A DNA stretch of 64,000 nucleotides from Candidatus Anderseniibacteriota bacterium (GTDB lineage Bacteria > Patescibacteriota > Andersenbacteria > UBA10190). The notes under the pieces are model-generated. The model made no database searches. It saw only the letters and a list, made by a program, of their open reading frames with translations, and was not told where the DNA came from. The DNA lies in assembly GCA_021414205.1 (NCBI GenBank), contig JAIOOW010000002.1:215062-279061 (forward strand). The letters are read 5' to 3'. Position numbers and translations under genes: made by a program. Below, piece after piece: positions 8,905 to 52,367 of this stretch (position 1 is its first letter; every line of letters starts with the position of its first letter).

Positions 8905-9932
8905 AGAGAAACTACTGTTCGCAGCGCCAGCCCAAGTGCAGTTGCATATCGAACAGATTCTTGAATATTCAATGGGGCATGGGACCGCTCCTTGGCAGAC
9001 AAGATATTAACCCAAGGATTTCCGCGCTCCACATGAATATCTTCAAAATGATGCAAAAATGCCGTATCAAGCCCGGTTAAATTTGAACCTCCGCCTGTCA
9101 TAATAATTTCGCGAACCCTGTGATTCGCATCAATACTGTTATAAAAATCCACAACCCCCTTAATGTCTAGCACCAGCTTGTCGAGCCCTGGCTCAAGCTG
9201 AGGAGTAACCCGCTCAAGCAAGTCAGCTGGAATATTCTGCAAATTCTGCATTAGCTGCTCTCGATCTTGCACGGAAAGTCCTGCTGCTAAATTTTTCACG
9301 CCTTGTTGCAAGCTGGCCGTAAACCTGCTTGCACCTACATCATGCACAATAACATTCGTGGACGTACTTCCGACGTCGACAATAATCACTCCTTGCTTGC
9401 CATATAGCTCCGGCGAGATGAGCGCGCGCACTATTGCTTGGCTCTCCAATTCAAAGGCGGCAACATCTAGCCCAATATCCATTATCACCTCATATAACGG
9501 ATCCACTACTTTTTTCTGGGCAGCGCCCACCTGAACTTCCCTCTTTCCTTCCGCTACCTTATGACCACTGTCCTCGAGAGCCTGCCAATCGATATATACA
9601 CTATCTACGCTAAATGGAATATGCTGAGCAATTTCAAATCGGATCGCCTCCTCAACCTCATCGTCCGACATGTTCGGTAATTCAATAACACGCAAAAACG
9701 ACTGAGTCTCTGGAATAGATACAACAACGGTATCTTTTTTTGAACTATTGATCCTGCAAGAAGATAGCGCCTTCTCAACTGCTTCCTGCATAGCTTTTTT
9801 ATTAATGACAACGCCATTCTCAATAACTCCGGCTGGAATAGTATAAATACATTTTGCAAGCAGGCGACGCACGCTTCCATCGGAAAGCTGCGCGATCTTT
9901 ATCGTTTGATCCGATATGTCTAAACCAATCAT
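8901..9932 (-). CDS. pilM: type IV pilus assembly ATPase-fold protein PilM
   Basis: MIGLDISDQTIKIAQL... actin-like fold matches the PilM family; start taken as the internal ATG at 9932 because the upstream extension overlaps the preceding gene. Confidence 0.85.
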   Translation of the reverse strand: MIGLDISDQTIKIAQLSDGSVRRLLAKCIYTIPAGVIENGVVINKKAMQEAVEKALSSCRINSSKKDTVVVSIPETQSFLRVIELPNMSDDEVEEAIRFEIAQHIPFSVDSVYIDWQALEDSGHKVAEGKREVQVGAAQKKVVDPLYEVIMDIGLDVAAFELESQAIVRALISPELYGKQGVIIVDVGSTSTNVIVHDVGASRFTASLQQGVKNLAAGLSVQDREQLMQNLQNIPADLLERVTPQLEPGLDKLVLDIKGVVDFYNSIDANHRVREIIMTGGGSNLTGLDTAFLHHFEDIHVERGNPWVNILSAKERSHAPLNIQESVRYATALGLALRTVVSL

Positions 9933-28309: not shown

Positions 28310-29032
28310 CTAATTGAGTGCGGAATCTATTGCTTGCTGGAACGTTGCGTATGGCTGGGCACCAATAATCGGCGTTTGCTTGCCATCTTTGCCAATGAGA
28401 ATGAAGAACGGCGTACCAACTTGTTGACCTGCGGCACTCATAACCTTTTCAACTGCCACAAGCTCGTCCTCATCCGCCTGTACAACATTCCCGTACGGCG
28501 CATCCTTAATGCATGATTGAAATGCTGAGATATCAGCAACTCCGGCTTCTTGCGCATACTTCGGCAAATCGGCAAGATTTAACCCGTCATTCGAGGGCGT
28601 ATTAGAGAAAATAGTATCTGTAAATTCCCAAAACTTCCCTTGTGCACTCGCACATTCTGCAGCAATCGCTTCTTGCGTTGTTTGTTGATGCACAGAAAGG
28701 CCGTGTCGATATACAAGACGAACCTTACCCGCATTATTTGCCATTAACTGCTTAAGAGTATTATGGGCTATTTTACAAAACGGGCATTCTAAATCCGAAT
28801 ATTCGATAAGGGTTACCGGTGCGTTTTTATCGCCCATAATATGATCCGCATCGGAAATTGCTCGAATATCAAAATGATCCGGCAACGGTCCGGGAGTAGC
28901 TTGCTGTGCGACTTGAGCGGCAGGAGCAACGGGAGCAGGCCCTACTTTTGAAAAATAGATACCTCCCGCAATTAACGCTCCTGCAATAACAATGGCTGCG
29001 GGAATTGAGAAAGCCTGTTTTATTTCTGGCAT
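28310..29032 (-). CDS. DsbA-like thioredoxin-fold oxidoreductase (membrane-anchored)
   Basis: CPFC active site, N-terminal TM, thioredoxin fold. Confidence 0.75.
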   Translation of the reverse strand: MPEIKQAFSIPAAIVIAGALIAGGIYFSKVGPAPVAPAAQVAQQATPGPLPDHFDIRAISDADHIMGDKNAPVTLIEYSDLECPFCKIAHNTLKQLMANNAGKVRLVYRHGLSVHQQTTQEAIAAECASAQGKFWEFTDTIFSNTPSNDGLNLADLPKYAQEAGVADISAFQSCIKDAPYGNVVQADEDELVAVEKVMSAAGQQVGTPFFILIGKDGKQTPIIGAQPYATFQQAIDSALN

Positions 29033-35337: not shown

Positions 35338-38300
35338 ATGTTCTCTATCGCGTTCATGAAAAAATTTGGGGGTCTTTTTTTACTGATTGCACTATCCGTA
35401 ATTGCGCATTGGCAATGGCTTGTTTTGCCGGGTATTTTCACGTCTGGCGACTATTGGTACGTACCTAACCAAGTATTTTCCGAATCATTAACTCTTCCCA
35501 AAATTCTCGATGCAAGCGGCTCTCTGACCACGGGCATATCTCAGCCTACGTTTGTACTGCTCTATGTTATTGGCGGCCTGCTTACAAAAATCCACCTCGG
35601 ATTTGCAGCATGGGAAAGAATTGTTTTCCTTTGGCCAATTGCAATTTTAGCGCCTATTCCGATATACCTGTTTTTACTTAAAACATTGCGATACCCACCT
35701 GGCGCATTTGCAGGTTCGCTAATCTACCTATTCAACACCTATATTCTTGCACGAGAAATGATGCATTTGCACATTGCAATCGTATATTTCCTAGCGCCCC
35801 TACTGTTTATTGCTGTACGAGATCTACTTCATAGGCAGAACATAAAATCTATCTTATCGTTTATTGCCATAACTGGAGTCTGTTCAATTTTCGAAATACG
35901 CATTTTATACATACTGACGTTCATGCTTATTGCATATAGTCTATACCTGCTCCTTACTCGGAAAATTATACTCTCATGGAAAATGCTTCGCGTCATATTG
36001 TGTGCGATTATTCCCGTAGCATTACTCCAATCATACTGGCTCATACCTTTTATATTTGCGAACTCTTCATTAGGATACGGATCGATAGTGAGCAGAGGAC
36101 TCTTTAGAAGCTATGACCACATAGGCGAAGCAATGACTTTGTATGATCCATTCTGGTCAGGTAATCAACTTACTGACTTTATTCCGCAACAAATCCCGCG
36201 ATGGGAATATATCATTCCAATCATCGCATTTTTATGGCTCATCGTAAGGTTACGGGCGAAAAAAAATTCATTTTTCTGGTTCTGGAGCCTCATCGCTATT
36301 ATCGGAATTTTTCTCGTAAAACAAGAAAATAATCCGTTCCCCCAAGCATACTCTTGGCTCTATTACCATTTTCCTGGGTTTAATTTTTTTCGAGAATCAT
36401 CAAAGTTAAAAATTATTGTCGCCCTCGCACTCTCAGCTTTAAGTGCCGGCTCGTTATTAGTCATACAAAGTAAATTTAAAAAAGTTGCCAATGCTCTCAT
36501 ACTGGGCTTAAGCGCAGTCATGCTTATTAATATTATCCCGCTTTCAACTGGGGCCATTGAAGCAATGACAGTATCAAATAGCATAGACAATCAATTCCTA
36601 GCAACCAATAAAATACTGGAATCAGATGCGGAATTTGGAAGAGTGTTGTGGGTACCATCAACTGAACGGTTTACCACTGCTTCGCAAACTCATCCGCGCC
36701 TATCGCTTGCCGCACTCACCGGAGCAGACTGGCTTCCTTTCGTACAAGACCAAGCAGATCCGTTTTCCATAACAGCACAGCCCGTCTTTAAAGCGCTGCT
36801 AAATTTTTCAAGCATTCGCTACATCGGCGAACCGGCAGACCAGATTGATCATGTATACCAACTATACAATGCTTCAAAAACTGATCTTGGAAAGAACATA
36901 GCAGGCATAAACAATCTTAAGCCAGTACAAGAATCACCTCTCGATATGCCACTTTGGAAAAATCCAGACGCAAAGCCTCACGCATATGTAGCAGACAATC
37001 TCGTAGCTGTGCACGGAGCTCCTCGAGACTTTTCCGGCCTTGACCCCAGTATCGCTACTGGATTTGTATTTCAATCGAATGTCCAAGATCAAACATTCCA
37101 GCATATCGATAGCACAATAGCTACGAATTCGGAATATATACCATTTTCTCCGGACTCCATCTCTATCGAACAAGGCCAGGTGCATAGCAACGTAAAAATC
37201 CCAGACTCTGGAACGTTTCAAACCGTAACGCGTGATGATAAAAAAGATTCTATAGCACCTATTCTTCTTGCAATAACGGATCAAACCCTTTCCATTATCG
37301 CAAGAATGCCTACAGGCGACATACCCCTTGCAACAACTCCGAATACGCATCAAGACTACGCAATTACAATCAACGGGGTACATTATTTCTATACATTCAC
37401 TGATCAGTCACAAACAATACAGCTTGGGATTACTCGCCTTCATCAATCAAAAAATTCGATCTCATTTCTAGCAAAAATCAATTCCGACCCTCTTGTTAAA
37501 GATGCGTCTTTTGAAGCAGGAACATGGGGCAGCGCAGGAGATTGCAATAATTCGGACAACACAACAAAAGAAGCGAACGGGATCTCCGCATCGCAATCGC
37601 CTGTCGCAACGGACGGAGCAAGCTCACTAAACCTAACAGCGAAAAACCATATCGCATGCACAGGGATCACTATTTCATCAGCAGCCAAACCTGCTACATA
37701 TTTTGGATCCATCGACTACCAGCAAAAAGCAGGGTCTGCTGGATACGTAAAGATTTTTCAATCAGACACAATGAAGAACCTCTCCTTTGTACAATTCAAC
37801 CAAAAGCAGAATTGGCAACACGCGGATTTCTCCTTTGATAGTGACGGCACCCACAATTCCACTCTATACCTCTACCAGCCTGCTGGGGATGGATTGTTTG
37901 ATAACATACACCTGGACGCGTATCAACTCATGTCCACAGCATCAGCAGATATCCCTGACAGCACCGAACGCATGACAACTCGACCGTATCAAACGTCGGA
38001 CACAACAATAAGTGATTCTGCAATCACCGGCTCAAACGTATTGGCGCAAACTACTTTTTCGCCAGACATGTCCGTAAGCGCGAGTGATTGCAATAATGCG
38101 GATAGCACCTCCGTTGAAAAGAACGGGATCAAAGCATCTATCGCAGAAACTGCCGACCACATCCAAGCGCTCTCAATTCAGGCAGCAAAACATATTGCAT
38201 GCGTAACACTGCCACTCCACGACTTTAATCCCACGTACGACCATCTCGTATCAATACGCTATCGAACAATTCTAGGAACCGATGCCCATGCTACGTTCTA

Positions 38301-38943
38301 CCCGAATGACAACCCGTCGCAAGCGACAATCCAGCTTCCGGAAACAAATAGTCAATGGCAAACAAAGAATATAATAATCAATGGGAGCAATATCCACCCC
38401 GATGCAAGTCTTATCCTCTATGTACCAGCTGACAGCGGCGAATCCCAAACCCAATTTGCATCCATTGCCGTCACAAGAATACCCATCCTTCCGTCAAGAT
38501 TCATCCAAACGGCAAACCCTCCATTATCATCCCTAGACGCCAAAACGGAAGAAATTGACCCGACTACTACCGTACTGCACGTGAGCGATATTGGATCATC
38601 TCCAAGAATGCTCATACTATCAAATCGCTTCGACCCCGGGTGGAAGGTATTCGTTAGGCCGCAAGGATCTAAAAAGCTACCAATATGGGAACGAATACTC
38701 TTTAAGACGCCAGGCCAAGAAATTTCAAAAGATTCTCACATACAGGCAAATGCATTAATGAATGGCTGGATTCTCGACCCCCAAGAAGTTCAATCAAAAC
38801 TCGGAACAACTCAAAATATTGATATTGTTATGGAATATTGGCCTCAGCGATATATGAACATCGGAGTATTATTGTCATTAGCTACTCTTGTGTTGTATAC
38901 AATAGGGATGATTATTGCATTCCTGCGCCATGGCAAAATATAA
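35338..38943 (+). CDS. giant (1201 aa) membrane protein: N-terminal polytopic domain, large extracytoplasmic region with an internal tandem repeat, C-terminal TM
   Basis: About 12 N-terminal TM helices with an early SGDYWY motif; two homologous modules (GDCNNSDNTTKEANGIS...KNHIAC and SDCNNADSTSVEKNGIK...KHIAC); final TM helix. Confidence 0.6.
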   Translation: MFSIAFMKKFGGLFLLIALSVIAHWQWLVLPGIFTSGDYWYVPNQVFSESLTLPKILDASGSLTTGISQPTFVLLYVIGGLLTKIHLGFAAWERIVFLWPIAILAPIPIYLFLLKTLRYPPGAFAGSLIYLFNTYILAREMMHLHIAIVYFLAPLLFIAVRDLLHRQNIKSILSFIAITGVCSIFEIRILYILTFMLIAYSLYLLLTRKIILSWKMLRVILCAIIPVALLQSYWLIPFIFANSSLGYGSIVSRGLFRSYDHIGEAMTLYDPFWSGNQLTDFIPQQIPRWEYIIPIIAFLWLIVRLRAKKNSFFWFWSLIAIIGIFLVKQENNPFPQAYSWLYYHFPGFNFFRESSKLKIIVALALSALSAGSLLVIQSKFKKVANALILGLSAVMLINIIPLSTGAIEAMTVSNSIDNQFLATNKILESDAEFGRVLWVPSTERFTTASQTHPRLSLAALTGADWLPFVQDQADPFSITAQPVFKALLNFSSIRYIGEPADQIDHVYQLYNASKTDLGKNIAGINNLKPVQESPLDMPLWKNPDAKPHAYVADNLVAVHGAPRDFSGLDPSIATGFVFQSNVQDQTFQHIDSTIATNSEYIPFSPDSISIEQGQVHSNVKIPDSGTFQTVTRDDKKDSIAPILLAITDQTLSIIARMPTGDIPLATTPNTHQDYAITINGVHYFYTFTDQSQTIQLGITRLHQSKNSISFLAKINSDPLVKDASFEAGTWGSAGDCNNSDNTTKEANGISASQSPVATDGASSLNLTAKNHIACTGITISSAAKPATYFGSIDYQQKAGSAGYVKIFQSDTMKNLSFVQFNQKQNWQHADFSFDSDGTHNSTLYLYQPAGDGLFDNIHLDAYQLMSTASADIPDSTERMTTRPYQTSDTTISDSAITGSNVLAQTTFSPDMSVSASDCNNADSTSVEKNGIKASIAETADHIQALSIQAAKHIACVTLPLHDFNPTYDHLVSIRYRTILGTDAHATFYPNDNPSQATIQLPETNSQWQTKNIIINGSNIHPDASLILYVPADSGESQTQFASIAVTRIPILPSRFIQTANPPLSSLDAKTEEIDPTTTVLHVSDIGSSPRMLILSNRFDPGWKVFVRPQGSKKLPIWERILFKTPGQEISKDSHIQANALMNGWILDPQEVQSKLGTTQNIDIVMEYWPQRYMNIGVLLSLATLVLYTIGMIIAFLRHGKI

Positions 38944-40042: not shown

Positions 40043-40760
40043 TTGGGCAGTTACGGTTCCAATGGCAAACGAAGAGAAAGATTTTCAGCACTTTGCCGAG
40101 GAAGTTACAAAGGTTCTTGACGATATTGGTTCTGGAACAGTCTACCATGTTATCAATAATTTTTCGCATGACCGAACATATGAACTTTCACAAGAATTAT
40201 CTTTAAAGGATTCGCGCTTCATAACAATATTCGCTCCGGAAAATCGCCACTTACCGGATGCGTACATAAGCGGTCTTCGTGCCGCATTCGATGCAGGAAA
40301 TAAATACATTATCGAAATGGATGCCGGACTATCGCACGATCCTCATCAGCTTCCCGACTTCCTTAGGGCGCTCGAAGCCGGGCACCAGTGCGTGTTTGGC
40401 AGCAGAATGGTTCCAGGAGGATCAATTACGCATTCACCAATCAATCGCAGACTTCTTTCTCGTGCAGGCACGCTGCTTTCTAATACAATGCTAGGAACAA
40501 AGTTGGCAGACATGACAAGCGGATATCAAGGATTTCATCGAGACGTGGTGGAGAATATCATCAACTATCCGCTACAATCAACAGCTCATTTTTATCAAAC
40601 CGAATTGCGATACCTTCTGCGCAATTATAATACATGCGAAATACCTATTTCGTATCAATCCCCTTCCCCCCGCGTTTCAAAACGAGCAATTCAAAATGCG
40701 TACCAAACATTGCTGCACTATTTCTTTCTGCGGCTATCTGGTCGAGCAAAGGAGCTGTAA
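40026..40760 (+). CDS. glycosyltransferase family 2, polyprenyl-monophosphomannose (Ppm/DPM) synthase-like
   Basis: WAVTVPMANEE (PAYNE-like), EMDAGLSHDP (DAD-SHDP-like) motifs. Confidence 0.75.
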   Translation: MSIRHSWAVTVPMANEEKDFQHFAEEVTKVLDDIGSGTVYHVINNFSHDRTYELSQELSLKDSRFITIFAPENRHLPDAYISGLRAAFDAGNKYIIEMDAGLSHDPHQLPDFLRALEAGHQCVFGSRMVPGGSITHSPINRRLLSRAGTLLSNTMLGTKLADMTSGYQGFHRDVVENIINYPLQSTAHFYQTELRYLLRNYNTCEIPISYQSPSPRVSKRAIQNAYQTLLHYFFLRLSGRAKEL

Positions 40761-43045
40761 CATGCAATCGAGATTATCAGTATTGTTATAAAAAGACCGA
40801 TAAAAAACCCGGGCGCCTTATACTGAAATACGATATCGTAACTACCCTCCGATATATCTATCGCAGGTCGATTCGATTCGATGATTGCAGGCTTGCCATT
40901 TGCCATCCAGCCTTTCGCATAATTTTCATTTAGCACAACGCGCGTAGCAATCGGCGTATCAACATGAACCTTTACCGTATTGTAACTCCAGAAAACTATG
41001 GTTACTTTTGCTCGAGAATCTAGAGCCGAAACGGCGCCCGTATCCCCTTCATCATAAATAGTCCGCACTGCAGACTGCGGGCCGAGCACTGAGCAATACG
41101 CCTCCGTTCCATAGCCTGCAAAATACGCATCTGTCGTTCTTGTCGTTCGAGACCCTTGCCCAGCATCATCATATCGCTCAGGGGTATAGGCAATAGGATA
41201 TGGAGCTGGAGATATTAATGGAATAACATGAGGCAACACGAATGCCTGCTCAGAAATTTGATACGTCAAACTAATCAAGTCTATGGCAATAAAACCGATT
41301 ACGCACACTTGAATAACGTTGCCGTATTTTGGCATAAAATTGCGCAATCGATCCATTCCATAGCTCGCTAAAAGTGCAATCGGAATTACTGCAAACACAA
41401 TCACGCGAGATAAATTAGACCTCGGCAAAAACTTAATATGATCCAGGATCGGCGCCAAAAACGGTCCAAGTGTAGAGAGCGCAATTGCCAATATCGTCGC
41501 AATACTAAGAGCTCGGATAATGCGATTCTGGAAAAAGCGCGCACTGCCAATTAACGCCAATACCAATGCGCCATATCCTATATACGCGCCATACTCGTGC
41601 CACCCACTGCTTTGATTCAAAATTACATACGTATCATGTAAATATCGACCAAAAAATATATCCCCCAGCCATGGGAGCGTGTACGAGGACGGCACATACA
41701 CCCTATCCGTAAATTGCTTCAACCAATATATAACAGGAATTAATTTAAACGACACGAGGCCGAGCCCCCATAATCCCGACTTCAAGGCAGTTAAAAATGC
41801 ATCTTTTTTTCGAGAAGCAAGCAAGGTCAAAACAATAAACGCGATCGTGGTATATATAAGCAAATACACTCCTCCGCCCAAAAATGTAAGTGCTAAAAAT
41901 ATTCCAAGTATTATTGGGCGCATTTTTTTCTGATACACGCAAAGCCAAGCCCAAAATATCCACGGAATCCACATGACGGTAAGAATATTCACATGCCCCT
42001 CGACGTTTTCAATTAAATTAACTCCACCGAATGAAACAATAAGAGCTGCAAGCAGTCCTGCCTCAACAGATCGCCCAAGCTTGCGCGCCAACACGAGCAT
42101 ACCAATCGCACCGACTATAACGGATAGCACCACATCAAGCCGTAACCCCCACGAAGAACCAAATAGTAATACCAATAAAAACGTTGGTGTAAATACTGGA
42201 AATTCCGGATCCCCTAATCCTGCTGTACCCCCGCAAGGATACGGATCCCAGAACGGAAAGGTATGCAATTGCAAAATTGCTTTGCGATACGAATCGTGAA
42301 GAGGTACATACAAATCCCAATCAGCTATTCCCAAGTCTCCGGTTGGAAATAAATACCCCAAATTTCCAAGTGGTGCAAGAAAAACGATACCTACTATAGC
42401 CCCTATCATTTTCTGCTTACTTGTTTTTAAAAGTGAAATTAAGGCAATACCGATCATTGCAATTGCGCCAACAATAACTCCTTGTCGAGCACCAAAGTCT
42501 GTAGGAACACGCCTCATAAACGTCAAAGAAATAATTGCAGACTGTGGCTGTCCATTTATTGACAACTTTTGAGCAGCGGATAGATTTTTATCTCGCTCCA
42601 TCATAAGAAGCGACAATGGATCCCCGTGCAGGAACGAAATGTCGAGCAAATACGCCCCCTCATGACTAACCCTCCACCAACTCGTATCCATCTGAATACG
42701 AGAAACGTTCGCACTTGAAAGATAAGAAACAGTATCGGCATCGCCCCGAGCAACGATACTGCCTTTGGGGTCCGTAATAACTACCCGCACTACCCTCCCT
42801 GATAACGTTGAGGTATTAGAAAATACAGCAACTCCTGAGTACACACCTTCCGTCAAATGAACTTTTTGCTGTAAATGATCACCCGCATGAAGAGAAATTT
42901 CTACTGGCGTATCAAAATATTTCACAATACGAATACGCTCCGTAGACAATGGAACAATATATACAATCAGCACCGCAACAAGAGCAATAGACGTAACTAA
43001 AATAAGTCGTCCAATTCCGGAACCAATAACTTGACGAATACCCAT
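40718..43045 (-). CDS. large (775 aa) polytopic membrane protein, putative GT-C-fold glycosyltransferase
   Basis: N-terminal anchor plus extracytoplasmic domain, then more than 10 TM helices with IADWDLYVPLHDSYR and FPFWDPYPCGG motifs, C-terminal beta-domain and final TM. Confidence 0.6.
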   Translation of the reverse strand: MGIRQVIGSGIGRLILVTSIALVAVLIVYIVPLSTERIRIVKYFDTPVEISLHAGDHLQQKVHLTEGVYSGVAVFSNTSTLSGRVVRVVITDPKGSIVARGDADTVSYLSSANVSRIQMDTSWWRVSHEGAYLLDISFLHGDPLSLLMMERDKNLSAAQKLSINGQPQSAIISLTFMRRVPTDFGARQGVIVGAIAMIGIALISLLKTSKQKMIGAIVGIVFLAPLGNLGYLFPTGDLGIADWDLYVPLHDSYRKAILQLHTFPFWDPYPCGGTAGLGDPEFPVFTPTFLLVLLFGSSWGLRLDVVLSVIVGAIGMLVLARKLGRSVEAGLLAALIVSFGGVNLIENVEGHVNILTVMWIPWIFWAWLCVYQKKMRPIILGIFLALTFLGGGVYLLIYTTIAFIVLTLLASRKKDAFLTALKSGLWGLGLVSFKLIPVIYWLKQFTDRVYVPSSYTLPWLGDIFFGRYLHDTYVILNQSSGWHEYGAYIGYGALVLALIGSARFFQNRIIRALSIATILAIALSTLGPFLAPILDHIKFLPRSNLSRVIVFAVIPIALLASYGMDRLRNFMPKYGNVIQVCVIGFIAIDLISLTYQISEQAFVLPHVIPLISPAPYPIAYTPERYDDAGQGSRTTRTTDAYFAGYGTEAYCSVLGPQSAVRTIYDEGDTGAVSALDSRAKVTIVFWSYNTVKVHVDTPIATRVVLNENYAKGWMANGKPAIIESNRPAIDISEGSYDIVFQYKAPGFFIGLFITILIISIACYSSFARPDSRRKK

Positions 43046-43055
43046 ATAGCTTTCT

Positions 43056-44336
43056 TTATACCTCGTTTTCTTTTAAAAACGCTAGCGCATCAGGAATCAT
43101 ATACAACGAACCTGCAATAAGTATACTCCCGTCTGTGCCGACATACTCTAAGCCCAGCTTCACAGCATCAGAAACACTTTCACGCACCTCAACACCATGT
43201 CCTACATCTCGTACTATGCGCGCAATAACATCCGGATCCTCTGGCATGTATGACCCCTTTGTAATAATAACTCGTTTGCATCTCGGCAATATCAAACTCA
43301 ACACATCTGCAATATTTTTCCCCTTTTTCGCGGCATACACGAGAACATCAAACACCGGCATTGTTTCTAGAAAGCTCACAAGTGCCTGCGCACCGTCTCC
43401 GTTATGTGCCCCATCAACTAAAATAAGTGGCTTCTGAGAAACTACCTGTAAGCGCCCCTCCCATACCGTTAAACTAACACCCCTAGAAATGTCTTCTTGA
43501 GACATGCGCAGTCCCGCGCCCATGAGCTCCCCGCACGCAGCAAGCACAACTTCCAAATTCTTAATTTGATGCGCGCCTAAAAGAGGTAGATGAATTCGCA
43601 TTGCAATCTTCTCTCCTGCGACATCTATATCCTGTCCGCTCAAATCTGAGCGCACGACATTCGTTTTCACAATACCTTGCGCTCGAATAACCTGCGTATT
43701 TTTTCGCCCAGCTTCGTCTTCTAATATTTTTACAACACTCGCACCCTCTTCTCGCGTAATAACTGGCACGCTATCTTTTATAATTCCAGCTTTTTCTCGA
43801 GCAATTTCCTCAACCGTATTTCCTAAAAATTCCATGTGATCCAATCCCACGTTCGTAATAATAGATAGCAAAGGGGTGATTACATTTGTTGCATCCAGTC
43901 TTCCACCCATACCGACTTCTATAACAGCAATATCTATATTGCTTCGAGCGAAATACAAAAACGCTAATGCTGTAGTAAATTCAAAAAACGTAGGTTGAAG
44001 ATTATTATGTTCAACTGCAACGCGAATTTCTTGAATCAGACTTATTAAATCACTGTCAGAAATCGCAACGCCAGAAACCTTTATCCTCTCATTAAATGCA
44101 TATAGATGAGGACTGGTATACAGCGCTGTCTTAAAGCCAGATTCTCGTAATATAGATTCCAGCATCGCACACGTACTTCCTTTACCATTCGTTCCAGTAA
44201 TATGGATGCTTTTGAAGGATTTTTCAGGATGCCCCAGAACGTCCATTAGCTCCTTCATAACAGCAAGCCCCGGCTTAATGCCAAATCGCTCCAAATGATA
44301 CAAATACTCCAACTCCTTCTGCATACGTGCTAGCAT
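43056..44336 (-). CDS. folC: folylpolyglutamate synthase / dihydrofolate synthase (Mur ligase family)
   Basis: HITGTNGKGST P-loop and Mur ligase middle/C-domains; start chosen at an internal ATG, with the first 43 codons of the track ORF being Cys-rich and atypical. Confidence 0.8.
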   Translation of the reverse strand: MLARMQKELEYLYHLERFGIKPGLAVMKELMDVLGHPEKSFKSIHITGTNGKGSTCAMLESILRESGFKTALYTSPHLYAFNERIKVSGVAISDSDLISLIQEIRVAVEHNNLQPTFFEFTTALAFLYFARSNIDIAVIEVGMGGRLDATNVITPLLSIITNVGLDHMEFLGNTVEEIAREKAGIIKDSVPVITREEGASVVKILEDEAGRKNTQVIRAQGIVKTNVVRSDLSGQDIDVAGEKIAMRIHLPLLGAHQIKNLEVVLAACGELMGAGLRMSQEDISRGVSLTVWEGRLQVVSQKPLILVDGAHNGDGAQALVSFLETMPVFDVLVYAAKKGKNIADVLSLILPRCKRVIITKGSYMPEDPDVIARIVRDVGHGVEVRESVSDAVKLGLEYVGTDGSILIAGSLYMIPDALAFLKENEV

Positions 44337-44354: not shown

Positions 44355-45476
44355 ATGCCAATACCCCCTACATCCCTCAAAGCATGCTTTATAAATCTCA
44401 GAGCGTATCATATATTCGAAGAATCCTCTCAAATTGCAACAGGAGGCGCAGAAATAGCACTTCACGAGCTTGCCCCGCTACTAGGAAAGCATGTCAACAC
44501 GACTATTATTACGGGCGATTTTGGACAAGGCCACCAGATAAAAACTCAGCATATTACCCTGTTATCGTCTTTAAAACTCCGGCGCCAAAACCCATTCACG
44601 CAACTATGGAAATTTTGGAACGCCCTCAAAGAAGCTCGTTCAGATGTCTACATTGAATCAGTGTTTGGAAAAACAGTATTTTTCACGTGGCTTTTTTGCA
44701 GACTATATAGAAAAAAATTTATTTACATAACCGCCTCAGACAGCGAATGCGACGGGAGCGCAATCAAAAGATATCCTATTACCGGCAATTTATTCAAAAT
44801 AGCTCTCGAGCATGCAGATGTTATTGATGTATCCGTAGCTCATCACGAAGACCAGCTGCGGACACACCATCCAAATATTACGTGCCCTATTGCGTACATC
44901 CCCCTCGGAATGCACGCCTATACACCAAGCGCGACAGCTAAAAGAACAACAATTCTATGGGTAGCACGTTGCGAACCATGGAAAAATCCATTTCTTTTCT
45001 TGGAATTGGCAAAGCGCTTTCCGAAAGAACAATTCATTATGATCGCAGCACCATTAGAAAATCAGTTAAGATTATTTAAAGAGGTAAAACAGCAAGCAAA
45101 ACACATAAAAAACATGCGCTTTATCGAGGGCTTGCCCCATAGAAAATTAGATGAGTATTTTTTACATGCAAAAATCACAGTAAATACGTCCGATTTCGAA
45201 GGATATTCCATGGCATTTATGCAAAGCGGCCTTGCGGGTACCCCAATCGCAACCCTCAACTTAAATCCGGATTCAGTTATTACAACGCACGATCTCGGTA
45301 CATGCGCACATGGCGATTTTGAACTTCTCGTACAACAAGTACGAACACTTTTAGAACATCCAGAGGAATTGCGAAAAAAATCAAACAATATAGCTTCTTA
45401 TATGAGGGCTCATTATGATGTTGAGCGAGTGGCCGAGCAGTGGCTGCGCCTATTTGCAGAAATGTTCGCCTCATGA
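44355..45476 (+). CDS. glycosyltransferase family 4
   Basis: N-terminal IATGGAEIALHELA (GGAE motif), C-terminal GT-B domain. Confidence 0.7.
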   Translation: MPIPPTSLKACFINLRAYHIFEESSQIATGGAEIALHELAPLLGKHVNTTIITGDFGQGHQIKTQHITLLSSLKLRRQNPFTQLWKFWNALKEARSDVYIESVFGKTVFFTWLFCRLYRKKFIYITASDSECDGSAIKRYPITGNLFKIALEHADVIDVSVAHHEDQLRTHHPNITCPIAYIPLGMHAYTPSATAKRTTILWVARCEPWKNPFLFLELAKRFPKEQFIMIAAPLENQLRLFKEVKQQAKHIKNMRFIEGLPHRKLDEYFLHAKITVNTSDFEGYSMAFMQSGLAGTPIATLNLNPDSVITTHDLGTCAHGDFELLVQQVRTLLEHPEELRKKSNNIASYMRAHYDVERVAEQWLRLFAEMFAS

Positions 45477-45488
45477 AACAATAATTTC

Positions 45489-47183
45489 ATGAACCCAATC
45501 CTTCCCCTTGAAGCGTTTACCCCTCCGTACGACGCCGACTCCTATAATGAAGAACAAAAATGGAACTTATCCCCATTTTTCACAAACCTCACATCGTCCG
45601 TATACGTCCCCCTCATATCCTCTCCTGAAGTTATCGGCGCCTTGTGCTCCAGAACAAGCAGGGCAGCAGACGATTTGCGCTTAATTTTCTTAAAAGAATA
45701 TGTTGAGCCGTTTTTGCAAGACAACCCATCAGATACAGAACAAGCAAAGTATGGCAAAACGTTAAAAGAGTTTATCGATTTTTTACATACCCATCCCACA
45801 GAATCTATTTTCTCGAATCCAAAAGCTCGATCGTTTTATGCAAAATGGCTCGCACAATACGGAGACGATTCTATCGCTCAAATGGCCGGCATGCACGTGG
45901 TGTTTTCCAGCTTGTCGCAGATTGCAATCAAGCAATTCGAAGATCAGCGAATTGGCTTAGCCCCGATTGAAAAGTCTACGCGCTACGTAGATTATTCACA
46001 AAAAGTACATGGCGGATATCGCTACTACACCGACCCAACCTTAAAACAGCTCGGATTAGAAGAAGAGTATACATCAGCAATGAATACGCTATTTGATACG
46101 TATATTGATTTGATTCCGAAATTATCAGCCTATTTAGCGCAACAATTTCCAGATGAAACAAAAAGTGTTGTAGAGAAAAAAGCATTCGACACTGTTCGAG
46201 GATTGCTGCCGATGGCAACATTGTCTCAAGTGGCCTTTTTCGGAAATGGCCAAGCATTTGAATATTTAGTAAGCAGGTCCGCCCGACACAGTTTGGGCGA
46301 AATTCGATGGGCTACAGAGCAAACGTATCAAGAATTATACAAAGTAACACCATCATTTTTGCGTAGAGTAAAAGACCCTGCAAGCCAAGATAAAGTAGAG
46401 GCATATCAAGATTACCTCTCTCAAAAAACTGCACGCATTGCGAAATTTGTTCCAGAAACTCTCACAAAGAACCATGATCACGATACTGCTGTATCGCTTG
46501 TAGAATACGACGTTGATGGCGAAGCGAAAATCATTGCCGGCATGTTATACAATGCAGACAGTAACACTGCCTCTTGGGAAGATACCCTTGCTGCCGTACA
46601 AGCAATGTCAGAGCAAGAGAAGCGGGAAATTCTTGCTGCGTATTTAGGCAATAGAACTCAGCGCTGGCAAAAAGTTGGCCGCGCATTCGAAAACACATAC
46701 CTGCGATATGACATCACGATCGACATTGGCGCATGGAGAGATTTGCATCGCCATCGTATGCTCACTCAGCAGCGCCAGCTCTTTACGGTAGCCCACGGCC
46801 ACGAAACGCCCCAGGAGCTCATCGACGCGGGACTAGATCAACCCTATCGAGATGCGCTACACAAAGCAGCAGCTATCTATAGAAAAATTGCGGAACATGA
46901 CCCGATATTAGCCCAATACGCAGTCCCTATGGCATACAAAGTCCGTTTCATGCAATGGACTAACGTGCGCGAATGCTTTTGGGAAATGGAACTTCGAACT
47001 ATTCCAGAAGGCCACCCTGGATACCGCCATATCGAGCAAGAAAAATTTAGACTATTCGAAAAAGTATATCCGCTTATCGCGCAATACATGCGAGTAAACA
47101 TGGGAGAATACGACTTTGCCCGCCGCGGCCAGGAAGAAAAAATTCAAGAAAAATTAAAAGCGTTAGAAAAACTTTCTGCGTGA
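45489..47183 (+). CDS. thyX: flavin-dependent thymidylate synthase ThyX, long (564 aa) two-domain form
   Basis: C-terminal half has WRDLHRHRMLTQQRQ (ThyX RHR motif); N-terminal half is ThyX-like with a degenerate motif. Confidence 0.85.
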   Translation: MNPILPLEAFTPPYDADSYNEEQKWNLSPFFTNLTSSVYVPLISSPEVIGALCSRTSRAADDLRLIFLKEYVEPFLQDNPSDTEQAKYGKTLKEFIDFLHTHPTESIFSNPKARSFYAKWLAQYGDDSIAQMAGMHVVFSSLSQIAIKQFEDQRIGLAPIEKSTRYVDYSQKVHGGYRYYTDPTLKQLGLEEEYTSAMNTLFDTYIDLIPKLSAYLAQQFPDETKSVVEKKAFDTVRGLLPMATLSQVAFFGNGQAFEYLVSRSARHSLGEIRWATEQTYQELYKVTPSFLRRVKDPASQDKVEAYQDYLSQKTARIAKFVPETLTKNHDHDTAVSLVEYDVDGEAKIIAGMLYNADSNTASWEDTLAAVQAMSEQEKREILAAYLGNRTQRWQKVGRAFENTYLRYDITIDIGAWRDLHRHRMLTQQRQLFTVAHGHETPQELIDAGLDQPYRDALHKAAAIYRKIAEHDPILAQYAVPMAYKVRFMQWTNVRECFWEMELRTIPEGHPGYRHIEQEKFRLFEKVYPLIAQYMRVNMGEYDFARRGQEEKIQEKLKALEKLSA

Positions 47184-47662
47184 TCACTCTTGTCGCCGCA
47201 ATCGATCCGAACAACGTTATTGGCAAAGCCGGCTCCACGCCGTGGCACATTCCGGATGAACTAAAATTATTCAAAGCAATCACGTACGGGCATGCGCTGA
47301 TTGCTGGGCACGTCACGTACAAATCTATCGGTCATGGGCTACCAGGCAGAACGTTATATGTGCTATCTCATAGTAAGCCTACCAAGAATCAAGAAGGTGT
47401 CGTATTTTGTTCGTCTACTACTGACGCATTAGAAAAGACAAAAAACGAACGAACAGTATTTGTTATAGGGGGTGGGTCAGTGTACGATGAATTCATGCCT
47501 CTCGCCCAAGAGATGCGCATCTCGCACCTTCGAACGGAATATTCAGGAGATGTATACTTCCCCGAGATCGATCACACCATCTGGCGAATTCATACAAAAA
47601 CCGAATATCCGCTTTTTACCCATATTCATTATGTACGCAATGAACAACCTTCAAAAAACTGA
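47180..47662 (+). CDS. folA: dihydrofolate reductase
   Basis: ITLVAAIDPNNVIGKAGSTPWHIPDELKLFKAITYGHALIAGHVTY matches DHFR; ATGA overlap with thyX. Confidence 0.85.
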   Translation: MITLVAAIDPNNVIGKAGSTPWHIPDELKLFKAITYGHALIAGHVTYKSIGHGLPGRTLYVLSHSKPTKNQEGVVFCSSTTDALEKTKNERTVFVIGGGSVYDEFMPLAQEMRISHLRTEYSGDVYFPEIDHTIWRIHTKTEYPLFTHIHYVRNEQPSKN

Positions 47663-49001
47663 TAAGCAAGTATTTCGAATTATTACAAATGAGGAAGCAC
47701 GCCAGCAGGAAACGCTTTCGATGATTCCTTCCGAGAATTGGTTTTCATCGTCCGTTCGCGAAGCTGTCGGGTCCGTCATGTCACACAAATACGCAGAAGG
47801 AAATATTGGGTCAAGATACTATGAAGGCAATCAATATATCGACGAACTAGAACAACTTGCAATAGATCGGGCAAAAAAAGCATTTAATTTGCCAAAAACA
47901 TGGGATGTAAACGTCCAGGCTCTATCCGGAAGCAGCGCAAATTTGGCAGTATACCTAGCGCTCCTCCAACCAGGCGACACTATGCTTGCCATGTACCTGC
48001 CTGACGGCGGGCATTTATCTCACGGATGGTCATTTGAACCGGATGCGAAGAAGCGCGAAAAAGATGTAAAATCCGGCTTGCTCGTATACACAGGTGGAAG
48101 CCGCAAAGTAAACATTACGTCTATTTTATATAATCCCGTTCAATATAAAACAGATCCGAAAACATCCCAATTTGACTACAAAGAAATTGAAAAGATTGCG
48201 CTCAAATATAAGCCGAAGCTCATTATTACTGGAGGCACTGCATATCCAAGAATTATTAATTATAGAAAGATGAAAGCAATCGCCAAGAAAGTTGGCGCAT
48301 TCTATATGGCAGATATTGCGCATGAGGCAGGGTTAGTAGCCGGCGGCGCATTCCCATCCCCAGTCGGCATTGCAGACGTTGTTACTATGACGACCCATAA
48401 AACATTGCGATCTGGCCGCGGCGCAATTATTCTTGCAAAAAAAGAACTCATAGAAAAAATAAACCGAGCAATCTTGCCAGGTTTACAGGGTGGTCCGCAC
48501 AATCACAATATTGCCGGCATTGCAGTTGGGTTGGGCGAGGCTATCAAGCCGACATTTAAAAAATACGCAAAACAAGTAGTTCTAAATGCGCAGGCACTTG
48601 GCAAAGCACTGCAGGCACAAGACTTCAAACTAGTCACAGACGGAACAGACAAGCATTTGCTACTGATCGATTTATCGCACGAACCATTGCTTGGCCGACC
48701 ATTTGCGCGCGTACTCGCACTCGCAGGCATTACCGCAAACTACTCCACGATGCCATGGGATTCCCGCCCGCCTCGCAACCCATCCGCACTTCGACTCGGA
48801 ACGCCAGTTCTAACGACCCGTGGCATGAAAGAAAAAGAAATGGTTAAAATTGCTGAGTGGATCCGCGAAGCAATGCGTACCGCAGAACCGTGGAAGGAGC
48901 TGTCGTTTGAGCAATTAGAGAAAGAAGCTACTAAATCTAAAGACATCAAGCAGATCGCCAAAGAAGTAAAAGAACTTTGCAAAACGTTCCCGTTGGCCTA
49001 A
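47631..49001 (+). CDS. glyA: serine hydroxymethyltransferase
   Basis: LSMIPSENWFS, THKTLRSGRGA PLP-lysine motif; start overlaps the folA 3' end. Confidence 0.9.
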   Translation: MYAMNNLQKTDKQVFRIITNEEARQQETLSMIPSENWFSSSVREAVGSVMSHKYAEGNIGSRYYEGNQYIDELEQLAIDRAKKAFNLPKTWDVNVQALSGSSANLAVYLALLQPGDTMLAMYLPDGGHLSHGWSFEPDAKKREKDVKSGLLVYTGGSRKVNITSILYNPVQYKTDPKTSQFDYKEIEKIALKYKPKLIITGGTAYPRIINYRKMKAIAKKVGAFYMADIAHEAGLVAGGAFPSPVGIADVVTMTTHKTLRSGRGAIILAKKELIEKINRAILPGLQGGPHNHNIAGIAVGLGEAIKPTFKKYAKQVVLNAQALGKALQAQDFKLVTDGTDKHLLLIDLSHEPLLGRPFARVLALAGITANYSTMPWDSRPPRNPSALRLGTPVLTTRGMKEKEMVKIAEWIREAMRTAEPWKELSFEQLEKEATKSKDIKQIAKEVKELCKTFPLA

Positions 49002-49011
49002 TATAGGCGTC

Positions 49012-49872
49012 ATGACGTATTTCATGACGCAATGGTATATATTCCAAGACTTAACCGATCAGGAGGTTTTGGATATCCAAAAAGATCTTCGTGAAATTGG
49101 ATCTACCCACGACATGAACGGTTTAATTTTGCTCGCCAACGAAGGCTGCAATGGGACGGTGGCCGGCTCTCCAGAAGCAATTGAGACCATTCGCGCATAC
49201 CTTACTGAAGCATTCCCAAAGATTTCATTTCAAGATTGGACCAGCGACATAAAGCCATTTAAGCGATTTAAAGTAGATATCCGAAAAGAAATCGTTGCAT
49301 TAAAACATGAGGGCATTCTTCCGGCGGGAAATGCTAAGCATCTTTCTCCGAAAGAATTTCATGAAATGATGCAAAAAGGCGATGTAACTGTGCTAGATAC
49401 TAGAAATACCTACGAAACAAAAATCGGAACGTTTGAGAATGCAATTGATCCGAAATTAGAATCATTTTATCAATTCCCGAAATTCGTAGAAGAGAGCAAT
49501 ATTCCGAAAGATAAACCCGTCCTCATGTTCTGCACGAGCGGAATTCGGTGTGAAAAAGCAGGAGAGGAAATGGCGCATCAAGGATATAAAGAGGTGTATC
49601 AACTCGATGGCGGCATCACGAATTATTTAAAAGAGTATCCGAACGGCAAATGGAATGGCGAATGCTTTATGTTCGACCATCGCGTTGCTGTGGATTCGCA
49701 TTTGCAACCAAGTAAGCGCTACGCCCTCTGCCCTATCTGCGGCAACCCGGGCGACGTGCAAGCCGCATGTTCCGTATGCGGTAGTGAGTCCAAATACTGC
49801 GCAGACTGCCTCGCAGTAAATCCTGCCACCTGTTCTCGGGCATGCAGACACGAGGTGCAAAAGTCAGCCTAA
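49012..49872 (+). CDS. trhO: rhodanese-domain tRNA U34 hydroxylase TrhO (YceA/UPF0176 family) with a C-terminal Cys cluster
   Basis: Rhodanese active-site loop CTSGIRCEKAG, N-terminal YceA-like domain, C-terminal CPICG...CSVCG...CADC. Confidence 0.7.
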   Translation: MTYFMTQWYIFQDLTDQEVLDIQKDLREIGSTHDMNGLILLANEGCNGTVAGSPEAIETIRAYLTEAFPKISFQDWTSDIKPFKRFKVDIRKEIVALKHEGILPAGNAKHLSPKEFHEMMQKGDVTVLDTRNTYETKIGTFENAIDPKLESFYQFPKFVEESNIPKDKPVLMFCTSGIRCEKAGEEMAHQGYKEVYQLDGGITNYLKEYPNGKWNGECFMFDHRVAVDSHLQPSKRYALCPICGNPGDVQAACSVCGSESKYCADCLAVNPATCSRACRHEVQKSA

Positions 49873-51319: not shown

Positions 51320-51733
51320 ATGCATAAAGGTTTTGTACTAGTAGCATTTTTGGGCCTCGTAGTTGCGGGATACCTGTTTATTACCTACACATCCCCCATC
51401 CCTATTACCTGCGTTGCAGGAGAAGGCTGCAAAACAGTCCAAGCAAGCCATTTCTCTTCATTCTTCGGCATTCCAACGCCAGCCTATGGCATTATCTACT
51501 ATCTTGCTCTTGGCATTTTTGGCGCACTATGGCAAAAAAATTCCTCGAAGCTGTTTAATCTCGCCCTGACAATACTTACCTCTAGCGGACTTGCGATATC
51601 TATATTTTTATCCTATCTCGAGGCGTTTGTGGTGCATGCATGGTGCTCCTGGTGCGTTACCAGCGCAATCCTTACTGTAGTTGCATTCATTATAAATTGG
51701 CGTGTAGTATCAAACCATGACACTCACATCTGA
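51320..51733 (+). CDS. vitamin K epoxide reductase (VKOR)-family membrane protein
   Basis: Loop cysteines CVAGEGC and CSWC active site in the last TM; 4-5 TM. Confidence 0.75.
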   Translation: MHKGFVLVAFLGLVVAGYLFITYTSPIPITCVAGEGCKTVQASHFSSFFGIPTPAYGIIYYLALGIFGALWQKNSSKLFNLALTILTSSGLAISIFLSYLEAFVVHAWCSWCVTSAILTVVAFIINWRVVSNHDTHI

Positions 51734-52367
51734 TGCAAAATTCGTAATAGGTATCTTAGTTGCCACATGCCTCGTTATCGGCGTTGGGGCATGGGTTACC
51801 CAGATTAAATCAAAACCGGCAGCAGCAAATGTTGTTCCTGCAAACTTAGTAGATCGCCTCGCTCGATCGGACTCAGCATTTCAAGGACCTGCAGACGCTA
51901 AGGTTACCGTGGTTGAATTCGGCGACTTCCAGTGCCCTGCATGCGGATCACTCTACCCGGCGTTCAAACAAGCAATGCAGGACAATAAAGATAAATCAGT
52001 TCGATTTGTATTTAGAAACTATCCGCTCCCTCAACACCAATTTGCACCACTAGCAGCAGAAGCGTCATTATACGCACTTGCTCAAAATAAATTCTGGGAA
52101 TTTCATGATATTTTATTCGAGCATCAAGATAACTTGACCCAAGCTGATTTAGAAAACTATGCAAAACAAATAGGGTTCAATGCGGATGATTTTAAAAATG
52201 CACTAGATAATCACACGTATAAAGGGATCGTTGATCGCGATAAGGCGGATGGCGTAGCACTTGGACTGGATCACACCCCTACGGTATACATCAACGACAC
52301 TGAATACACAGGCAATTATTCAGCAACCGAACTTGAATCCGCCATAGACGCCGCGCTTACAAAATAA
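51717..52367 (+). CDS. DsbA-family thioredoxin-like oxidoreductase (membrane-anchored)
   Basis: FGDFQCPACG (CPAC) thioredoxin active site; overlaps the VKOR gene by 17 nt. Confidence 0.75.
   Translation: MTLTSDAKFVIGILVATCLVIGVGAWVTQIKSKPAAANVVPANLVDRLARSDSAFQGPADAKVTVVEFGDFQCPACGSLYPAFKQAMQDNKDKSVRFVFRNYPLPQHQFAPLAAEASLYALAQNKFWEFHDILFEHQDNLTQADLENYAKQIGFNADDFKNALDNHTYKGIVDRDKADGVALGLDHTPTVYINDTEYTGNYSATELESAIDAALTK

Follow-up and report, generated by a model that had tools for sequence, protein, structure and literature searches.

The window analysed here is the whole of a 64,000-nucleotide stretch (64 kb) of Candidatus Anderseniibacteriota bacterium (contig JAIOOW010000002.1, positions 215,062 to 279,061), and three closely packed genes, thyX, folA and glyA, lie on its plus strand between positions 45489 and 49001. 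The first of these, a two-domain (internally duplicated) thyX gene (45489..47183, +), encodes a flavin-dependent thymidylate synthase of 564 residues, with a match to Pfam Thy1 in two stretches (E 2.6e-35). It is followed by folA (47180..47662, +), which has a GTG start and encodes a dihydrofolate reductase (DHFR) of 160 residues (DHFR_1, E 9.5e-42), and by glyA (47631..49001, +), which encodes a serine hydroxymethyltransferase (SHMT), as indicated by an SHMT match with E 1.6e-139 and by a score of 485 bits with NF000586, for which the cut-off is 335. The DHFR_1 match of the folA product covers residues 1-143 and begins at profile position 1, and no NCBIfam equivalog cut-off is reached. In its sequence "PWHIPDELKLFK", read directly against the E. 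coli enzyme, a Glu occupies the position of the acidic catalytic residue D27.

A preliminary description of this DNA, made from the letters alone, reported overlapping stop and start codons throughout the block, a glyA start within the 3' end of folA and the letters ATGA at the junction of thyX and folA. The packing and the 4-nt overlap are as described, and the letters are to be corrected: the thyX stop and the folA start share GTGA. For glyA, the start is either ATG 47631, which is the choice of the gene caller, or ATG 47640, and the overlap with folA, whose stop codon lies at 47660-47662, is 32 nt in the former case and 23 nt in the latter. No Shine-Dalgarno-like sequence is observed upstream of folA or glyA; this absence and the overlaps at the two junctions (GTGA; 23-32 nt) suggest that the three genes may be translationally coupled.

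Two ThyX domains within one chain

The open reading frame at 45489-47183 (+) bears out the claim that this ThyX is unusually long, given that the solved ThyX chains comprise 216-270 residues, compared with 564 here. Scanning of the whole protein against Pfam Thy1 (PF02511) gives 122 bits, above the gathering cut-off of 24.8 bits, and each half also exceeds this cut-off when scanned alone. In the N-terminal domain (residues 1-322; 45489..46454, +), residues 107-289 match Thy1 positions 33-191 with 67.2 bits, and in the C-terminal domain (residues 323-564; 46455..47183, +), residues 339-528 match positions 4-190 of 191 with 59.9 bits. Additionally, a family profile of the N half matches the ThyX structures of M. 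tuberculosis and C. glutamicum with E 5e-6, and sequence and profile searches of the PDB with the C half find no ThyX match.

For the comparison of the halves with each other, and for the residue counts given below, a diverse alignment of 53 relatives at 29-60% identity (alignment A4) was used. In hhalign runs with the 53-member alignment, the N half matches the C half with a probability of 94% (E 1e-7), the C half matches T. maritima ThyX with a probability of 97% over 195 columns (E 5e-11), and the N half matches the same enzyme with a probability of 86% (E 5e-6); the reference sequence was checked and is identical to 1KQ4/1O26. The homology of the N half with the C half and of the C half with T. 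maritima ThyX is significant only with this diverse profile, and shallow profiles of 10 or 30 sequences detect no homology in hhalign.

The predicted structures lead to the same assignment. An AlphaFold2 model of the full-length protein has a predicted local distance difference test (pLDDT) score of 84 and a predicted template modelling (pTM) score of 0.84, and the top Foldseek matches listed for it in the PDB are all ThyX. The C half modelled alone (AlphaFold2, pLDDT 76) also has ThyX only among its top Foldseek matches listed, the best of which has E 6.6e-6 and a probability of 1.00. For both models, the top PDB matches listed have a probability of 1.00 and a target template modelling score (TM-score) of 0.5-0.68, and the sequence identity to solved ThyX structures is 14-23% only. 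The segments of lowest pLDDT in the full-length model are the active-site loops 125-129, 160-164 and 419-425. These results support the pseudo-dimeric fusion that had been proposed, in that the protein is built from two ThyX domains that have diverged: the halves separately exceed the Pfam Thy1 cut-off and align with each other and with T. maritima ThyX. The N half, for which a check of the ThyX fold had been called for, shows ThyX homology in the Thy1 scan, in the profile matches and in the full-length model.

The same architecture is found in a great many relatives. The protein is 100% identical to the NCBI entry [quoted passage not shown] on a contig of 470,730 bp, where FAD is flavin adenine dinucleotide, and the best 120 matches in a database clustered at 90% have 60-87% identity and nearly all measure 550-607 residues, three of them being shorter and one labelled partial. 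Chance is not an issue for the 564-residue architecture because it is conserved in these best 120 matches. Among 1.84 billion representatives at 50% identity, 3023 clusters match with E<=1e-3; 451 of them reach E<=1e-30, and the best 150 are mostly 500-600 residues long and match from end to end. Two-domain relatives are present in at least 596 GTDB species genomes and occur in the candidate phyla radiation (CPR), DPANN archaea, Binatia, SAR324, Acidimicrobiia and Nitrospirae; relatives are also present in Chloroflexus, Roseiflexus and Chloroploca and in the cyanobacteria Fischerella, Westiellopsis, Calothrix and Prochloron.

The duplication of the ThyX domain was already noted in 2009, for Chloroflexi and "a few other species", by Valas and Bourne, who called the form uncharacterised and reported that Chloroflexi other than Dehalococcoides have only the duplicated ThyX (PMC3224940), which argues that this form is a working thymidylate synthase. 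Beyond the 2009 remark, no other paper on tandem, fused or duplicated ThyX was found in the literature surveyed. The suggestion that this ThyX is unusual in the sense of rare is therefore not sustained, since the two-domain family is large, is already annotated as FAD-dependent thymidylate synthase and has been known as a duplication since 2009; the ThyX described here is an ordinary member of a known and very widespread two-domain family.

Active-site residues of the two domains

Alignments of the halves with ThyX structures and with the T. maritima enzyme allow the catalytic positions to be assigned in each domain. In the N domain, G125-D126-D127-S128 (45861..45872, +) is the counterpart of GHxS (T. 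maritima G52-H53) in the HMMER alignment to the segment "GHTALLEH" of C. glutamicum ThyX, which places an Asp at the position of H53; this position is D in 44/53 relatives and H in 9/53. The counterpart of the RHR motif is D152-Q153-R154 (45942..45950, +), in which R78 and H79 are lost and R80 is kept as R154. Among the relatives, position 152 is D in 30 and R in 8, position 153 is variable and position 154 is R in 49/53. The following active-site loop is kept as E161-K-S163-T-R165-Y166 (45969..45986, +; T. maritima E86, S88, R90 and Y91), and its residues, whose catalytic roles have been described (PMC8316439, PMC11940539), are strongly conserved (S163 and R165 in 53/53 relatives, Y166 in 52/53 and E161 in 50/53). 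R237 (46197..46199, +), the equivalent of T. maritima R147, is R in 52/53.

The segment RSARHSLGE (residues 263-271; 46275..46301, +) had been described as a degenerate RHR motif of the N-terminal half, and the alignments place it elsewhere. It aligns with "RASEHADVE" of M. tuberculosis and "RADSHAQWE" of T. maritima (R174-E182), such that R263, H267 and E271 correspond to R174, H178 and E182, and the real RHR counterpart is D152-Q153-R154. R263 is not strictly kept in the family, with K in 28 and R in 16 of the 53 relatives.

In the C domain, the segment HRHRMLTQQRQ (residues 420-430; nt 46746-46778, +) contains the canonical RHR motif, R421-H422-R423 (46749..46757, +; T. maritima R78-H79-R80), and the claim that this motif occurs in the C half only is correct. 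R421 is present in 53/53 relatives, and H422 and R423 are present in 52/53 each. A deletion of five residues after RHR removes the equivalent of L87-Y91, and the Arg at the R147 position is lost and replaced by Q476 (46914..46916, +), which is Q in 43/53 relatives. R503 (46995..46997, +), the equivalent of R174, is invariant (53/53). Further correspondences are R417 with R74, D418 with Q75, N492 with N163 and R494 with R165, and D418 is invariant in the 53 relatives.

The contiguous motif RHRxxSxxxxSxRY is thus found in neither domain: the N domain reads DQR...EKSTRY, and in the C domain RHR is followed by the deletion of SxRY. All 53 relatives have the active-site loop in the N domain only and RHR in the C domain only. 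When the two domains are pooled, R78, H79, R80, S88, R90, Y91, R147 and R174 are all present and invariant or nearly so. The alignment of both halves to ThyX, which had been proposed as a way of finding the half that retains the ligands, can be carried out and gives a divided answer: neither half keeps all of them, the N half having the loop and the R147 equivalent and the C half having RHR and the R174 equivalent. This split pattern points to one ancient duplication, which would have been followed by complementary loss of active-site residues.

Two subfamilies can be distinguished by their N domains in alignments A4/A6 (relatives P0227, P0245, P0246, P0247, P0250 and P0263). Most members, including the present one, have GDDS, and a "GH-type" subfamily keeps GHxSxxEH with the H53 equivalent. 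The GH-type is found in myxobacteria (Chondromyces, Polyangium, Minicystis), Aenigmarchaeota and Dependentiae.

A candidate composite site in a probable folate-salvage setting

The genes around thyX bear on the function of the protein. As had been described, a folC gene of the folylpolyglutamate synthase (FPGS)/dihydrofolate synthase family lies close to the block (43056..44336, -; 426 residues according to the gene caller), is divergent from it and scores 380 bits with TIGR01499, for which the cut-off is 162.65; monofunctional and bifunctional FolC proteins are indistinguishable by sequence (PMC1971073). In a sample of 85 two-domain thyX loci, in which the present locus (L001) is counted and glyA and folC are taken as neighbours when within 4 kb, folA adjoins thyX in 3/85, all of them close relatives, glyA is a neighbour in 13/85, archaeal loci included, and folC is a neighbour in 8/85. 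The thyX-folA-glyA order is kept with overlaps of 4 and 23 nt in an Andersenbacteria metagenome-assembled genome (L003) and of 8 and 4 nt in a relative of 72% identity (L006), and is absent from other close relatives. The latter locus, together with L009 and L015-L017 (41-72% identity), is titled "uncultured Candidatus Saccharibacteria" or "uncultured Gammaproteobacteria", and these labels may be unreliable.

No ThyA and no second ThyX are found in the window, and a tblastn search of it with E. coli ThyA gives no match better than E 2. Other folate-synthesis genes are not present among the genes called over about 58 kb of the window. DHFR together with FPGS is a signature of the salvage of intact folates, and organisms with ThyX still need some DHFR activity for folate synthesis or salvage (PMC1971073). 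The co-occurrence of thyX with a DHFR gene is thus explicable rather than paradoxical, since DHFR is needed for salvage even in ThyX organisms, and DHFR and FolC fit intact-folate salvage here, a role that we infer from the gene content. As for the view of the block as a module of unusual composition, the adjacency of thyX and folA is uncommon (3/85), the composition itself is explicable by folate salvage, and the linkage of thyX to glyA and to folC extends more widely.

In canonical ThyX, the uracil pocket is formed by Q75 and R182 (=R174) from monomer A and by S88/Q89 from monomer B (PMC3498832), H53 belongs to a third monomer, and the flavin N1/C2=O has R78 opposite it (PMC11940539). R174 activates deoxyuridine monophosphate (dUMP), and S88, R90 and Y91 drive methylene transfer, such that mutants of these three residues in T. 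maritima are slowed more than 100-fold in this step (PMC8316439). By analogy, the C domain of the present protein would play the part of monomer A through R417, R421-H422-R423 and R503, and the N domain would play that of monomer B through the loop residues E161, S163, R165 and Y166 together with R237; where GHxSxxEH is retained, as in the GH-type subfamily, the role of the third monomer could fall to the N domain as well. One polypeptide, a fused pseudo-heterodimer, would then take the place of two subunits, and a pair of polypeptides would assemble into a ThyX-like pseudo-tetramer. Such an assembly would have about two complete composite sites where canonical ThyX has four, and its reciprocal pseudo-sites would be catalytically dead. 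In the proposed cycle, SHMT would load the one-carbon unit onto tetrahydrofolate, ThyX would methylate dUMP with FAD and reduced nicotinamide adenine dinucleotide phosphate (NADPH) and regenerate tetrahydrofolate, and DHFR and the nearby FolC would channel oxidised folates obtained by salvage into the pool of tetrahydrofolate polyglutamates. It is probable, in our judgement, that the locus is such a thymidylate cycle in one packed unit, with a ThyX whose two complementary domains form composite sites.

A broader proposal, to which we give an even chance, is that every member of the two-domain family would act as an obligate heterodimer within a single chain, its motif being split and each dimer having two live and two dead sites, and that the pseudo-sites have perhaps been repurposed. 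Such pseudo-sites may serve, for example, in binding NADPH or a regulatory nucleotide, and the new invariant residues D418, D126-D127, D234 and Y477 may mark them.

Several points weigh against the reading of the locus as a thymidylate cycle with a composite ThyX. The NCBIfam equivalog model for thyX, TIGR02170, which describes single-domain ThyX, gives the protein 40.2 bits, below its cut-off of 87.9, and an Asp stands in place of the H53 equivalent. No structure or enzymology of a two-domain ThyX was found in the literature surveyed, and the oligomeric state and the number of active sites would follow from residue conservation combined with published subunit assignments. The placement of R237, the R147 equivalent, on the N-domain side of the composite site is likewise tentative. 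The salvage reading refers, for thyA, to the 64-kb window and, for the folate genes, to about 58 kb of it. Additionally, promoter and terminator scans of the block give background level only, so that the operon boundaries are those indicated by gene spacing.

Other readings of the same data can be weighed against these points. It is quite unlikely that only the C domain is catalytic, with the N domain serving as a pseudo-enzyme domain in a structural or regulatory role. The canonical RHR and the invariant R174 equivalent are indeed confined to the C domain, and R78, H79 and H53 are missing from the N domain, but the C domain lacks the S88/R90/Y91 loop, mutation of which cuts methylene transfer more than 100-fold in T. 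maritima (PMC8316439). In the N domain of the 53 relatives the loop residues are invariant or nearly so, which is unexpected for a purely structural domain, and the single-domain catalytic model was rejected for this deletion in one domain and conservation in the other. The low TIGR02170 score, the identity of 14-23% to solved structures and the absence of a contiguous motif from either domain could also describe a diverged flavoenzyme of the ThyX fold that acts on another substrate and is not a thymidylate synthase. We regard such a paralogue as very unlikely and have rejected it, as the dUMP-contacting and catalytic residues are complete once the domains are pooled and the gene belongs to a block of overlapping genes that also encodes DHFR and SHMT, with folC nearby. 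The report that Chloroflexi except Dehalococcoides have the duplicated ThyX only (PMC3224940) and the absence of ThyA and of a canonical ThyX from the window speak against it as well.

A different doubt concerns folA, which might serve a ThyA encoded elsewhere in the genome, its linkage to thyX being incidental. Both thymidylate synthases do occur in some bacteria (PMC1971073), and the 64 kb searched for ThyA belong to a contig that measures at least 470 kb. However, the window contains nothing resembling ThyA, and the overlap of folA with thyX on one side and glyA on the other, which recurs in two related genomes, favours co-expression with ThyX. Folate salvage moreover requires DHFR whichever synthase is present (PMC1971073), and we consider an incidental linkage unlikely. 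That the long reading frame is an assembly or frameshift artefact joining two adjacent thyX genes has nothing in its favour except the unusual length. An architecture of 550-600 residues occurs in thousands of independent assemblies and in isolates (Fischerella, Westiellopsis, Chondromyces, Polyangium), and an identical protein is present in an independent Logan assembly; the artefact, almost certainly not the explanation, was rejected on account of the isolate genomes and the Logan assembly.

Canonical ThyX/FDTS enzymes (T. maritima TM0449, M. tuberculosis Rv2754c, PBCV-1 A674R) share the fold and the Pfam family with each half, have the same catalytic residues (R78-H79-R80, S88, R90, Y91, R147 and R174) and the same expected chemistry, namely the FAD- and NADPH-dependent methylation of dUMP with release of tetrahydrofolate, which is predicted here. 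They are, however, homotetramers of 216-270-residue chains with four identical sites, each built from three monomers, whereas the present chain of 564 residues has two non-equivalent domains. Their motif is complete, in contrast to the present protein with RHR in the C domain only, SxRY in the N domain only, Asp at H53 and a TIGR02170 score below the cut-off. The duplicated ThyX of Chloroflexi (PMC3224940) has the same architecture and the complementary residue pattern seen across the family, and the proteins of Chloroflexus, Roseiflexus and Chloroploca align over the full length with 37-39% identity; the present member differs in coming from a CPR bacterium and in lying within a folA-glyA block.

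Operons of thyA and folA and the bifunctional DHFR-TS (DHFR-thymidylate synthase) of protozoa and plants likewise couple a thymidylate synthase physically with DHFR. There, ThyA produces dihydrofolate that DHFR recycles, whereas ThyX releases tetrahydrofolate, and DHFR here is for this reason more likely to serve the salvage or entry of oxidised folate. A further possible parallel is the ThyX of Chlamydia trachomatis (CT632), of about 529 residues, which may also be a two-domain form and was reportedly characterised biochemically by Griffin et al. (J Biol Chem, 2005). No chlamydial sequence is among the matches listed, the cluster look-ups and the search for GH-type homologues included.

Humans lack ThyX, and the enzyme is being pursued as a target for antibacterial agents. 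In the literature surveyed, the mechanistic and structural work on ThyX is all on single-domain homotetramers. A very widespread two-domain ThyX that may have half the active sites and a different pocket (H53 to Asp) would matter for inhibitor design and for understanding the evolution of homo-oligomeric enzymes into fused asymmetric ones. It would also matter for annotation, as the NCBI equivalog model misses the two-domain family. TIGR02170 is apparently blind to this large class of ThyX, the members of which probably owe their names to other rules. With regard to CPR biology, the block would represent a minimal route of folate salvage and thymidylate synthesis, consistent with dependence on external folate. 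The result for the window is mainly ordinary, a correct but routine annotation of a thymidylate/folate-salvage operon, and of most interest is the division of the ThyX motif between the two domains throughout the family, which predicts an asymmetric enzyme with half the usual sites.

Neighbouring genes and other features of the window

Immediately upstream of thyX, with a gap of 12 nt, lies a GT1-family glycosyltransferase gene (44355..45476, +; Pfam Glycos_transf_1, E 6.9e-13), which may be co-transcribed with thyX; no functional link between the two is evident. Downstream, at a distance of 10 nt from glyA, a UPF0176/rhodanese (TrhO-like) gene (49012..49872, +; Pfam UPF0176_N, Rhodanese and Rhodanese_C) is probably the last gene of the thyX-folA-glyA transcription unit. 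A homologue of this gene is also found downstream of the thyX-folA-glyA block in L006 (about 8931-9491).

Directly downstream of folC, a gene at 40718-43045 (-) encodes a multi-pass membrane protein of 775 residues with no Pfam match, and a protein of 759 residues, also with no Pfam match, occupies the same position beside folC in a related genome (L002, 214-2493). Beyond the UPF0176/rhodanese gene, a VKOR gene overlaps a DsbA/thioredoxin-like gene (51320-52367, +), and L003 has the same VKOR-DsbA pair downstream of its glyA. At 28310-29032 (-), the window contains another DsbA-like gene next to a glutaredoxin gene.

No tRNA genes are found in the 64-kb window. Nearly all of its 2-kb bins have a negative GC skew, and the cumulative skew over 64 kb is -3.7. 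A cluster resembling type IV pilus or type II secretion systems spans about 7.8-17.5 kb (-) and includes a T2SSE ATPase, T2SSF, PilM and prepilin-like N_methyl proteins, with a PMT-family glycosyltransferase gene among its genes. Additionally, a long run of glycosyltransferase genes extends over about 24.5-40.8 kb, and within it lies an open reading frame of 1201 residues with no Pfam match (35338-38943, +).

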